In this document: positions 61,240 to 64,000 of the stretch, in pieces
Layout: each line of letters begins with the position of its first letter
How positions within the stretch are numbered: position 1 is the first letter of the stretch
DNA from: Escherichia phage PMBT57
Length of the DNA: 64,000 bases
Sequence record: MG770228.1
Reading direction: 5' to 3' (one strand)
The notes under the pieces: generated by a model
The model's input: only the letters and a program-made list of their open reading frames with translations
Told to the model about the DNA's origin: nothing
Database searches by the model: none
Program-made: the position numbers and the translations under genes

Positions 61240-61246
61240 GGTCTGT

Positions 61247-63211
61247 ATGCGTCACATTACATTCAACAATGAGGGTATCTACCCTATTGCTATCCTTACT
61301 ACAACGTTACGTAAGGATGATATTGTCAAAGCATACATGGAACCCTGGGATGTAGATAAAGATTCAGTAATGATTCTTGAACTTCATACAGCCCCAGGGA
61401 AAAAGAAAACTCCTGCTAAAGAGATGCAGGAGTTTATTACCCAAGAATTAGTGCCAGCATTCGAAGCAGCACAAACTCAGTATATCATCTGTGGTGATTC
61501 TGAATATTACAAACAGCTAACCAAACAAGGTAAAGCTGATGCCAATATTGGCTATGTAATGGATTGTGCTTATGGGAACCAGAAAGTTATTTACGTTCCC
61601 AATTACAGACAAATCTTTTATGACCCGGATAAGGTAAAGACTAAGATTGCTTTATCTATGCAGGCTCTGATTGATTATGTCTCTGGTTCTTATGTTGAGC
61701 CAGGAACTAAGATTATCCACTATGCTGATTATCCATTAACTCCAGAAGCTATATCTAAGTGGTTAGATAAGTTACTGGAGATGAATGTTCCATTAGCAGT
61801 AGATATAGAAACTTTCAGTCTGAAGCATTATGACTGTGGTATAGGTACTATTACATTCTGCTGGAACAAGCACGAAGGGATAGCATTCCCTGTGGATTAT
61901 GAACCAATTGAGGGGGCTACTGAAGCTCCTTATGGTAGACAAGTTCACAACATGCTTGTTCGTTCTATGCTCAGGGACTTTTTTATTAAGTATCTGAACA
62001 GGCAGATGTATCACAATATTGCCTTTGACGTATATGCACTCATTTACCAGTTATTTATGACAGACCTTCTGGATACGGAAGGGTTGTTGCATGGCATGAG
62101 TATCATGCTAAGAAACTGGGATTGCACTAAGTTAATTACCTATCTGGCCACTAATTCTTGTGCTGGTAATAAGCTAAGTCTTAAAGACCAGGCTCAGGAA
62201 TATGCTGGTAACTATGCTCAAGAAGAAATCAATGACATTACCAGAATCCCATTAGCAGAGTTGTTGGAATACAACTTAGTGGATGGATTATGTACCTGGT
62301 ATGTCTATGAAAAGCATTGGGATACTCTGGTTAATGACCAACAGTTAGATGTTTATACAAACATCTTTAAACCTGCATGTGAAGATATTATTCAAATGCA
62401 GTTAACTGGTATGCCTATCAATATGAAGACAGTATTGGAGGTAGAAGAAGCATTAACCCAAGACTATAACAATGCGTTAAAAACGATTGCTGACAGTAAA
62501 GTAATCAAAGATTTTACCCGTCTTCTTAATGAAGAATGGGTAGAAAAACAGAACCAGATTCTGAAGAAAAAACGAGTGACTTTAGCTGATGCTAAAGAGC
62601 AGTTTAATCCAAACTCAGGTGTTCAATTACAGAAGCTACTTTTTGAGTTCCTGGAGTTACCTGTGCTGGGTCTGACTGCAAGTAAACTACCCGCTACTGG
62701 TAGTGGCATACTCAAGTCTTTGAAGAACCATACTCAAGATGCCAGTATTCTGGAAATTCTTGATGCTCTGATTGATTACAAAGCTGTAGATAAAATTCTG
62801 ACAGCATTCATCCCAGCATTAAAAAATGCCAGACAAGGACCAGATGGTTGGCATTATCTCTTTGGTAATCTGAACTTAGGTGGGACTGTATCAGGCCGTC
62901 TATCCAGTAGCGAACCAAACCTACAAAACCTACCTTCTGGTTCCAGATATGCCAAGATGATTAAGAAATGCTTTGAGGCTCCCCCTGGATGGATATTCTG
63001 TGGGCTAGACTTTGCTTCTCTCGAAGACCGTATATCTGCTTTAACAACCAAAGACCCTAATAAACTAAAGGTGTACATGGGTGTGACCGTTTATACAGTT
63101 ACTATAGAAGGGGTTGACCATCATATCCGAGATGATGATACAATCGTTTATGATGGTAAAACTTATACCGGTGAGGAGTTCTATGACGCTTTTACCCGTG
63201 GCCTTCTATGA
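61247..63211 (+). CDS. DNA polymerase (family A), N-terminal fragment: 3'-5' exonuclease domain through motif A; last ~44 codons are probably read-through into an intervening sequence
   Basis: Exo motif LAVDIETFSL; motif A CGLDFASLEDRI; homology ends near KLKVY (~63076). Confidence 0.75.
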   Translation: MRHITFNNEGIYPIAILTTTLRKDDIVKAYMEPWDVDKDSVMILELHTAPGKKKTPAKEMQEFITQELVPAFEAAQTQYIICGDSEYYKQLTKQGKADANIGYVMDCAYGNQKVIYVPNYRQIFYDPDKVKTKIALSMQALIDYVSGSYVEPGTKIIHYADYPLTPEAISKWLDKLLEMNVPLAVDIETFSLKHYDCGIGTITFCWNKHEGIAFPVDYEPIEGATEAPYGRQVHNMLVRSMLRDFFIKYLNRQMYHNIAFDVYALIYQLFMTDLLDTEGLLHGMSIMLRNWDCTKLITYLATNSCAGNKLSLKDQAQEYAGNYAQEEINDITRIPLAELLEYNLVDGLCTWYVYEKHWDTLVNDQQLDVYTNIFKPACEDIIQMQLTGMPINMKTVLEVEEALTQDYNNALKTIADSKVIKDFTRLLNEEWVEKQNQILKKKRVTLADAKEQFNPNSGVQLQKLLFEFLELPVLGLTASKLPATGSGILKSLKNHTQDASILEILDALIDYKAVDKILTAFIPALKNARQGPDGWHYLFGNLNLGGTVSGRLSSSEPNLQNLPSGSRYAKMIKKCFEAPPGWIFCGLDFASLEDRISALTTKDPNKLKVYMGVTVYTVTIEGVDHHIRDDDTIVYDGKTYTGEEFYDAFTRGLL

Positions 63212-63760
63212 ACAACGGTATAAGATTTCCGATGAAGGTTTCATCTTAAATCTTGCAAACAATCAACCCCTAAAACCGACTCTCAATCCTAACGGATACC
63301 TTAAGGTTGGGTTAGCTAATGGGGATGGTACACATCACCAAGAGCTACTTCATATTCTGGTAGCTAAACACTTCATCCCTAATCCTTATGGCTATGAACA
63401 GGTGAACCATAAAGATGGTAATAAACTGCATTGTCATAAGGATAATCTGGAATGGTGCTCTGCTACTCAGAATGTTGAACATGCACTTAAAACAAGGCTA
63501 CGTCCTGGTTACATGTCTGCTGACGATAAAGAAAAGTATCTCTTTGAGGTGCTGGCAGGTAAGCAAGTTAAAGACATTGCTTTTGAAATAGGTAGACGTC
63601 CTGAAACTTTGCATAAGATGCTCAGAACTACTGCTGACCGACTTGGTGTTCGAAATGAGTGGGATGATGTTATGAGGAGAAATAGAAAAGATGTTGCTTT
63701 ACGACAGCTTGCCAAAATCAACTCATGACTTCACTGGCAAGAAAATTGACAACGTAGTCA
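63077..63760 (+). mobile_element. intervening sequence in the DNA polymerase gene carrying an HNH homing endonuclease ORF (group I intron or free-standing endonuclease insertion)
   Basis: Polymerase homology stops near 63076 and resumes near 63760 in a different frame; HNH ORF lies between. Confidence 0.55.
63183..63728 (+). CDS. HNH homing endonuclease; start uncertain (ORF-track frame opens at 63114)
   Basis: YKISDEGFILNL ... NPNGYLKVGL ... VNHKDGNKLHCHKDNLEW. Confidence 0.65.
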   Translation: MTLLPVAFYEQRYKISDEGFILNLANNQPLKPTLNPNGYLKVGLANGDGTHHQELLHILVAKHFIPNPYGYEQVNHKDGNKLHCHKDNLEWCSATQNVEHALKTRLRPGYMSADDKEKYLFEVLAGKQVKDIAFEIGRRPETLHKMLRTTADRLGVRNEWDDVMRRNRKDVALRQLAKINS

Positions 63761-64000
63761 AAGCCGGGAGTTCATCAGGTTACGATGGGCATAGTCTTCG
63801 TGCATATGCTTACTTCGGTGAGATGATGCCCGACATTAAAGATACGGTAGAGTCTGTTAATTCTATTCAGGAGAAGTACAAAGCATATCGTCAGGATTCT
63901 AAAGCACCTACCTTTGCTCTTACCTATCAGGGTACGTACATCACTTTGATGAAGAACTGTGGTTTCCCTGAACAGAAAGCTCGAATGGTTGAGGAACGTT
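63691..64000 (+). CDS. DNA polymerase (family A), C-terminal fragment, partial: continues past the window end
   Basis: Frame +1 relative to the HNH ORF; GYDGHSLRAYAYFG and motif B-like RQDSKAPTFALTYQG. Confidence 0.6.
   Translation, partial: MLLYDSLPKSTHDFTGKKIDNVVKAGSSSGYDGHSLRAYAYFGEMMPDIKDTVESVNSIQEKYKAYRQDSKAPTFALTYQGTYITLMKNCGFPEQKARMVEER

Follow-up and report, generated by a model that had tools for sequence, protein, structure and literature searches.

A mobile HNH endonuclease cassette splits the family A DNA polymerase gene of Escherichia phage PMBT57, probably into two chains that assemble without splicing

Organisation of the polymerase locus

We examined the family A DNA polymerase gene at the end of a 64,000-nt stretch of DNA from Escherichia phage PMBT57 (MG770228.1; hereafter the window), in which a homing-endonuclease gene separates the two conserved polymerase motifs A and B. 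All features of the window described here lie on the plus strand. The first open reading frame (ORF), at 61247-63211, encodes an N-terminal polymerase polypeptide of 654 aa (PolN) whose translation comprises the exonuclease, the thumb, the palm with motif A (codons DFASLEDRI at 63008-63034) and a C-terminal tail, and Pfam DNA_pol_A is matched over its residues 433-610 (E = 1.9e-25). A C-terminal polypeptide (PolC, 63691-64000), in which DNA_pol_A is matched as well, carries the fingers with motif B (RQDSKAPTFALTYQG, codons at 63889-63933, in frame in the window) and the rest of the palm; it runs off the end of the window, and its full length of 276 aa was taken from phage VEc25 (99% identical). 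Between the two halves, at 63183-63728, lies a 181-aa homing-endonuclease gene of the I-HmuI type (NUMOD4 plus HNH_3).

The window comes from an N4-like coliphage: a sequence search with 61240-64000 returned eleven such phages at 98-99% identity, among them vB_Eco_Jura, SPSP, AlfredRasser/Bas69, AL25, VEc25 and BEU isolates (99% for Jura, VEc25 and AlfredRasser), while phages N4, 3HA13 and OLB145 matched at 97.8-98.3% identity over only 75% of the length and in two pieces. These three phages show that cassette-free alleles, with a continuous 859-aa gene, occur within the species, and the N4 polymerase, gp39, reads KVY-TD-GYDGH over the site. Alignment with this empty site, a check that an earlier sequence-only reading of the window had proposed, fixes the insert as the 695 nt at 63077-63771, placed between codons KVY and TD of the N4 gene and between motifs A and B. 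The N4 DNA at the site is ...AAGGTGTAT ACCGAT GGTTACGATGGG, and the window has ...AAGGTGTAC, the insert, and then TCATCA GGTTACGATGGG. The flanks are 97.8% identical between the two phages, with a mild excess only of substitutions within 200 nt of the junction, which does not decide whether a co-conversion tract is present. PolN residues 1-610 are collinear with residues 1-610 of N4 gp39, the last native residue of KVY ends at 63076, and native polymerase residues resume at 63772 (SSGYDGH...). Since the native residues of window-type halves (610 + 249) add up to the 859 aa of N4, the insert replaced nothing native. Directly beside the cassette the native positions are recoded: TCATCA (Ser-Ser, 63772-63777) is the counterpart of N4 ACCGAT (Thr-Asp), and other lineages have ST, TP, TG or TD there. 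Phages with the cassette are viable lytic isolates, and the cassette occupies the identical site in Pollock, SP5M, PD205, Pylas and metagenomic or IMG/VR loci (L008-L022).

The insert consists of three chained and overlapping ORFs, namely the end of PolN, the HNH gene and the start of PolC, in three frames that are each offset by +1. PolN continues past KVY for 44 codons before its TGA stop (63209-63211), and these cassette-encoded residues form an acidic C-terminal tail (MGVTVYTVTIEGVDHHIRDDDTIVYDGKTYTGEEFYDAFTRGLL, 63077-63208, net charge -6). The HNH gene overlaps the end of PolN by 29 nt and is preceded at 4 nt by a Shine-Dalgarno-like GAGGAG (63173-63178) that lies within the tail codons TGEEF. 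The 3' end of the HNH gene contains a second GAGGAG (63674-63679), with a spacing of 11 nt to the PolC start; PolC in turn overlaps the HNH end by 38 nt and begins with 27 cassette-encoded residues, the head (MLLYDSLPKSTHDFTGKKIDNVVKAGS, 63691-63771, net charge +1). The VEc25, SP5M and Pollock annotations start PolC at the same ATG. The sequence-only reading had noted a polymerase frame with motif A that runs through about 44 extra codons to a stop at 63211, an HNH_3-type ORF, and polymerase sequence resuming near 63760 in another frame and leaving the window, and all of this holds, with PolC placed in the third frame from its ATG at 63691.

The chained layout is kept in more than ten lineages, including Pollock, SP5M, PD205, Pylas and metagenomic and IMG/VR loci, and the predicted translation signals of each half (stop, Shine-Dalgarno sequences and ATGs) are kept in ten loci. 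In these ten loci a purine-rich equivalent precedes the HNH ATG, and GAGGAG or AAGGAG precedes the PolC start at a conserved distance. The overlap between PolN and HNH ranges from 23 to 29 nt across lineages, and that between HNH and PolC is 38 nt in nine of the ten resolved loci (in L008, with GTG as its first start codon, it is 44 nt); PolC starts with ATG in nine of ten lineages and with GTG in one.

The endonuclease ORF scores above the Pfam cut-offs for both of its domains (HNH_3, 26.1 bits against 24.8; NUMOD4, 23.8 bits against 23.4) and matches the I-HmuI structure 1U3E over residues 6-105 (E = 3e-15). H76, N88, N97 and H100 of the H...N...N/H motif are invariant in five homologues, and the ratio of non-synonymous to synonymous substitution rates (dN/dS) of the gene, 0.07-0.10, indicates purifying selection. 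Its cleavage activity and its target are inferred. Starts of the HNH gene at 63114 or 63132, as in the AlfredRasser annotation, are ruled out: the stretch is constrained in the PolN frame and not in the HNH frame.

The insert is coding outside the endonuclease gene

The part of the insert outside the HNH ORF (approximately 155-170 nt), which the sequence-only reading had taken for about 170 nt of non-ORF sequence into which the polymerase frame drifts, is conserved coding sequence in the two polymerase frames. When substitutions in the first 102 nt of the insert were counted by codon position in the PolN frame, positions one, two and three carried 1, 1 and 9 between the window and Pollock, 0, 3 and 13 between the window and SP5M, and 1, 3 and 16 between Pollock and SP5M, and 340, 352 and 739 when pooled over ten lineages. 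The dN/dS of the tail in this frame is 0.045-0.07; in the other two frames it spans about 0.5 to 7 overall, with values above 1 among the window, Pollock and SP5M and of 0.5-1.3 against Pylas. Any expression signal lies downstream of the tail's first 100 nt, yet dN/dS there is 0.05-0.07. Past the HNH stop the periodicity moves to the PolC frame, with 0, 1 and 4 and 4, 3 and 9 substitutions by codon position in pairwise comparisons of the head and 377, 290 and 494 pooled. Both extensions, the 44-aa tail and the 27-aa head, are missing from the unsplit N4 polymerase and are under purifying selection. Tails are acidic in all lineages (net charge -2 to -7), and heads are mostly weakly basic.

Mobility of the cassette and persistence of the split

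Between the window and Pollock, which belong to different subfamilies, the two polymerase bodies are 51% and 67% identical and the tail, HNH and head are 93%, 93% and 96% identical; between Pollock and Pylas the polymerase is 85% identical, yet the tail, HNH and head are only 74%, 67% and 41% identical. These sequence comparisons indicate that tail, HNH gene and head move horizontally as one mobile unit. A second insertion site lies 17 codons downstream, after ...YF(K/G)DEMPNI(K/E), in loci L023 (2260-3050), L024 and L025 (2400-3060), whose HNH proteins are 50-55% identical to those of the first site. All 44 columns of the second-site tail align with the tails of the first site (hhalign P = 2.6e-6, probability 89%). 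A further locus with a second-site insertion, L031 (1500-2900), has a different HNH lineage and an extra 168-aa ORF between tail and HNH.

One locus, L034 (300-680), is an endonuclease-less derivative in which only about 100 nt of the HNH 3' end are left, while the tail with its stop (498-500) and then the PolC ATG (601) with its head are kept. The split state thus persists here without the endonuclease gene. The public gene call for this locus (P0034) reads the TGA as a sense codon.

An exhaustive profile search with the tail against 1.84 billion representative proteins gave 33 matches; in 32 of them the tail reaches the C-terminus of a protein or fragment of the PolN type, or comes within about ten residues of it. 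In none of these 32 is the tail fused to the downstream polymerase, the exception being the stop-readthrough gene call of L034, and no natural tail-head fusion or intact version was found among the same 1.84 billion representatives. A word-index search with the tail returned three tiny ORFs only. The 44 tail and 27 head codons, which the sequence-only reading had missed as such, are conserved parts of a mobile cassette that travel with the endonuclease gene; that reading had also missed that an assembly role of extensions of this type has been published for T4 topoisomerase II and Aeh1 NrdA.

Structure of the tail and comparison with other split enzymes

AlphaFold2, given the 44-aa tail alone in a three-sequence alignment, predicts four strands and a helix with a mean predicted local distance difference test (pLDDT) score of 92.4. 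The best Foldseek matches of this model in the PDB are 8yo3_C (rank 1) and 8yo4_C (rank 3), both of them the gp39-gp60 fusion of phage T4, with a template-modelling (TM) score of about 0.50 and a root-mean-square deviation of 2.5-3.2 Å, but with E values of 0.59 and 1.7. In the viral library BFVD, no fold matched the tail significantly. At the profile level, hhalign matches the T4 gp39 tail to tail profiles with P = 3.4e-5 and 6.9e-5, and a profile of six T4-like tails matches the cassette tail with P = 0.023 only. The head has no significant match to the T4 gp60 head, and the HNH protein has no BLAST match to the T4 mobA region. Our claim is that the cassette probably works like the T4 and Aeh1 systems described below, and we do not claim shared descent with them.

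In T4 the C-terminal tail of gp39 and the N-terminal head of gp60, parts of topoisomerase II, arose by insertion of the mobA endonuclease gene and form a pendant of about 70 aa outside the TOPRIM domain, which has been read as an assembly bracket (PMC11461880). The T4 39/mobA/60 arrangement resembles the window in several respects: an endonuclease gene of the HNH family interrupts an essential replication enzyme within a catalytic domain, a beta-rich tail is added to the C-terminus of the upstream half and a head to the N-terminus of the downstream half (about 70 aa against 44 + 27), and close relatives (T2, T6) have the unsplit gene. Unlike in the window, the T4 host gene encodes a topoisomerase and not a DNA polymerase, and the endonucleases of the two systems lack BLAST similarity and their heads are not detectably similar; the window in turn, unlike T4, has no translational bypass, and its cassette occurs in many lineages and at two sites.

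The nrdA-a/mobE/nrdA-b locus of phage Aeh1 likewise has an HNH homing endonuclease that splits an essential gene and overlaps its downstream half, and neither RNA nor protein is spliced (Friedrich 2007; Crona et al. 2011, PMC3045599); activity of the enzyme depends on the tails to which the insertion of mobE in nrdA gave rise (PMC3045599). Compared with Aeh1, the charge polarity of the window-type extensions is reversed and weaker (tail isoelectric point about 4.3, head 5.4-11), and whereas Aeh1 is a single known event, the cassette described here is a conserved unit that moved between polymerase lineages.

A polymerase probably assembled from two chains

We consider it quite likely that the HNH cassette has split the only family A polymerase gene of this phage in such a way that the enzyme is made as two polypeptides, with no RNA or protein splicing, and reassembles non-covalently, probably with the help of a clasp. 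This reading draws on the three-ORF anatomy, the translation-type selection on the flanks, the lack of ribozyme and intein hallmarks (see below), the mobility of the cassette as a unit and the split that outlasts the endonuclease in L034; non-covalent assembly and the clasp role of tail and head, for which T4 and Aeh1 offer experimental precedent, we infer. The confidently predicted fold of the tail, the retention of both extensions in L034 and the pairing of acidic tails with mostly basic heads lend indirect support to a need for the extensions in assembly or activity. A free-standing I-HmuI-like HNH cassette would have inserted between motifs A and B, giving PolN a 44-aa acidic tail and a stop codon. 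It would bring its own ribosome-binding site and endonuclease ORF, the 3' end of which would supply a ribosome-binding site, an ATG and the 27-aa head for PolC. The mRNA would then be translated in three overlapping frames into PolN (about 74 kDa), the endonuclease and PolC (about 31 kDa). PolN and PolC would join non-covalently through the palm, whose sheet requires motif A and motif C, one from each half, and tail and head would probably form a small clasp beside the break that stabilises it, as in T4 topoisomerase II. The endonuclease would cut cassette-free alleles such as that of N4, and recombinational repair would copy the whole cassette in.

Several points weigh against this reading. 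The 11-nt spacing between the Shine-Dalgarno sequence and the ATG of PolC is rather long. Conservation of the tail at the TGEEF codons could stem from the ribosome-binding site of the HNH gene, and conservation of the head is far lower (37-96% identity). The 5' 150 nt fold somewhat better than shuffled sequences (z = -3.2), and an intron reading has been adopted in three places, namely the Pollock paper and the joined coding sequences (CDSs) of Pylas and AlfredRasser.

Alternative readings

It is also conceivable, although improbable in our view, that the polymerase is made as two polypeptides but tail and head are no clasp, serving instead as carriers of expression signals or in some other interaction, with the halves joining via the native palm interface alone. 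The Shine-Dalgarno sequence of the HNH gene does lie in the 3' codons of the tail, the 5' codons of the head share sequence with the HNH end, and the head is poorly conserved; moreover, the fused T4 enzyme is as good as the natural split one (PMC11461880), and the Aeh1 tails are dispensable for forming the heterodimer of the two halves. The same tails are, however, essential for Aeh1 activity. Nor would signal carriage account for the strong constraint on the first 100 nt of the tail, which precede the expression signals, for the confidently predicted autonomous fold, for the acidity of the tail in every lineage, or for the survival of tail and head in L034 after the HNH gene was lost.

The sequence-only reading had left two models standing, a group I intron carrying a homing-endonuclease gene or a polymerase made as two polypeptides, and of these it is the second that we favour. 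As an intron, 695-701 nt would be spliced from the mRNA and one continuous polymerase translated, which we regard as very unlikely. In favour of the idea, the endonuclease is I-HmuI-like, and in phage SPO1 the I-HmuI gene sits in a group I intron of the DNA polymerase gene; HNH-bearing group I introns are also found in the polymerase genes of Bastille (I-BasI) and the T7-like phages PhiI and W31, and real group I introns occur elsewhere in N4-like polymerase genes related to that of the window (see below). Like the window, the polymerase introns of such phages interrupt a family A polymerase in a highly conserved stretch near the active site and carry the same endonuclease family; unlike them, the window has no detected ribozyme, and the flanks of its HNH gene are coding. 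The covariance-model check that the sequence-only reading had suggested came back empty: over 62800-64000, Rfam RF00028, the model of the conserved ribozyme core (P3-P8, P7), found nothing even with E as high as 10, and in the homologous loci L004, L005, L007 and L008 there was no match at E up to 1.

The same type of scan does find real group I introns at other sites of related N4-like polymerase genes. In L023 it recovers a complete 799-nt intron (1408-2206; 37.8 bits, E = 1.7e-6) that has a 531-nt internal endonuclease ORF and splits the motif A codons; since an ORF-containing intron of like size is detected there, such an intron in the window would have shown. Truncated group I introns, in the form of 3' halves with typical GUUCAGAGACUA and GAUAUAGUC elements, are present in L009 (1-172), at the same place as the L023 intron, and in L034 (1-141), before the NLQNLP codons. 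The polymerase genes of N4-like relatives have been hit by several kinds of mobile element.

The fold of the 5' 150 nt, which could speak for an intron, is not backed by covariation: over 11 lineages, RNAalifold assigns the first 160 nt of the insert 11 pairs, none of which is changed on both sides (covariation term +0.42), and predicts a single hairpin, from conserved His-His and Tyr-Asp-Gly codons. This hairpin (CCAUCAUA/UAUGAUGG) pairs 63118-63125 with 63149-63156, that is, His-His-Ile with Tyr-Asp-Gly codons, and its sequence is kept in the 11 lineages. The larger fold (63062-63211) takes in the HNH ribosome-binding site, and by analogy with what has been reported for mobE it might limit translation of the endonuclease, or it might be a by-product of conserved codons.

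The supposed intron flanks, moreover, show third-codon-position substitution in the polymerase frames, with the low dN/dS of the tail given above, and keep their stop and ATG. The endonuclease-less L034 keeps both as well, and its retention of the split with far too little RNA for a ribozyme counts against an intron. Inspection of the sequence gave no pair of splice sites, with a U preceding the 5' site and a G ending the intron, that would restore KVY-xx-GYDGH at the native length. As for the published intron readings, the authors of BASEL derived the intron boundaries from genome comparison and not from ribozyme evidence, and the Pollock note merely states the reading. Taken together, the data argue strongly against the cassette being a group I intron.

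A split-intein 'fractured gene', in which tail and head, on either side of the endonuclease gene, would be the intein halves that join PolN to PolC by protein trans-splicing, is scarcely credible. Hint domains, with their blocks A, B, F and G, measure at least about 125 aa even in the smallest cases, and tail and head together have only about 71 aa; neither the tail nor tail plus head matches an intein or Hint profile of Pfam or the PDB even at E = 10. The gene order (extein-N with extension, endonuclease gene, extension with extein-C) does fit the fractured genes of Dassa et al. 2009 (PMC2677866), which likewise consist of a half-gene with an extension, a free-standing endonuclease gene and an extension with the other half-gene, and likewise occur in phage-like replication genes; unlike those, the extensions in the window are too short and lack catalytic residues and Hint blocks. 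The insertion lies directly before Ser or Thr, the heads of three lineages end in Gly-Asn, and DDTIVYDGKTYTGEEF loosely resembles intein block A, the last not significantly. Yet the cassette begins with M, Q, T, L or A, with no conserved Cys or Ser, and ends with S, N, L, R, I or K, with no conserved Asn, so that only the following Ser/Thr is usually there.

Ribosomal recoding, in which two +1 shifts or hops in the ORF overlaps would yield PolN-HNH-PolC as one long polypeptide, can be dismissed as next to impossible: the three frames are each offset by +1 and in relatives motif B of this gene seems to be recoded by +1 or +5 (see below), but neither a slippery motif nor a conserved stimulatory element is present in the overlaps, both junctions keep a Shine-Dalgarno sequence and an ATG, L034 has about 100 nt between the stop and the next start, and to our knowledge there is no precedent for a 181-aa endonuclease within the palm-fingers loop.

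Apparent recoding at motif B in related loci

Motif B (RQxSKxPTF|ALTYQG), which is in frame in the window and in twenty other loci, needs forward recoding just past Pro-Thr in four related lineages: L020 (approximately 935-985), L024/L025 (approximately 3090-3150), L031 (2880-2960) and L023 (approximately 3085-3150). In the first three the sequence is ...ACN TTT C GCA CTT ACC TA..., with a common 15-mer (TTTCGCACTTACCTA), and a +1 shift is needed; in L023 it is ...ACC TGA CT TTC..., and a 5-nt Thr-to-Thr hop over the stop is needed (ACC-TGA-CT to ACT). Each +1 lineage is present in two to three independent metagenomes, and no start codon that would permit a further split was found at the recoding sites. 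A hairpin of -10.8 to -21.4 kcal/mol, differing in sequence by lineage, lies 0-6 nt upstream of the recoding site, and some in-frame motif B alleles have a weaker hairpin. The arrangement may be a striking parallel to the gene 60 bypass of T4 that accompanies the mobA cassette; that bypass has been proposed to protect against the cassette's nuclease (PMC5009743).

As a more tentative extension, which we think possible but less probable than its converse, tail and head may be a portable two-chain clasp, co-mobilised with the I-HmuI-like HNH gene, that would constitute a third self-neutralising vehicle beside introns and inteins, entering different sites and perhaps different genes. It would perhaps share ancestry with the TOPRIM insertion of T4 gp39/gp60, and in some lineages it would be accompanied, like T4 gene 60, by recoding at motif B (a +1 shift on UUU_C or a 5-nt Thr-to-Thr hop over UGA), possibly to protect the DNA against a nuclease.

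Annotation and significance

The insertion itself is already deposited and in the literature, and HNH genes splitting N4-like polymerases have already been noted for Vibrio phages; the nature of the insertion had been assumed rather than tested. The deposited annotations differ accordingly. AlfredRasser (MZ501049) and Pylas (MH899585) have the cassette in a joined, that is, spliced, polymerase CDS; VEc25, SP5M, Jura and Pollock (KM236242) have two polymerase CDSs, the Pollock paper nonetheless calling the insertion intron-encoded; and in AL25 (OW991345) the 44-aa tail is a separate 'DNA polymerase I' ORF. Given the sequence evidence for a two-piece polymerase, the exon-joined polymerase proteins are probably fictitious.

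The new finding is a conserved extension that accompanies the endonuclease from lineage to lineage and from site to site. The endonuclease-split enzymes with assembly extensions studied so far are only Aeh1 NrdA and T4 topoisomerase II, and the authors of those studies asked whether such extensions are a general solution. A family is now visible, in more than 15 lineages and at two insertion sites, in which the extension is conserved, confidently folded and co-inherited with the endonuclease, and the question of generality can be put to a direct test in an E. coli phage that grows in culture and has in N4 a sister phage with the empty site. If the two-chain reading is true, a family A polymerase that functions despite a break between motifs A and B, together with its extensions of 44 and 27 aa, would be a natural starting point for split-polymerase or split-enzyme designs.

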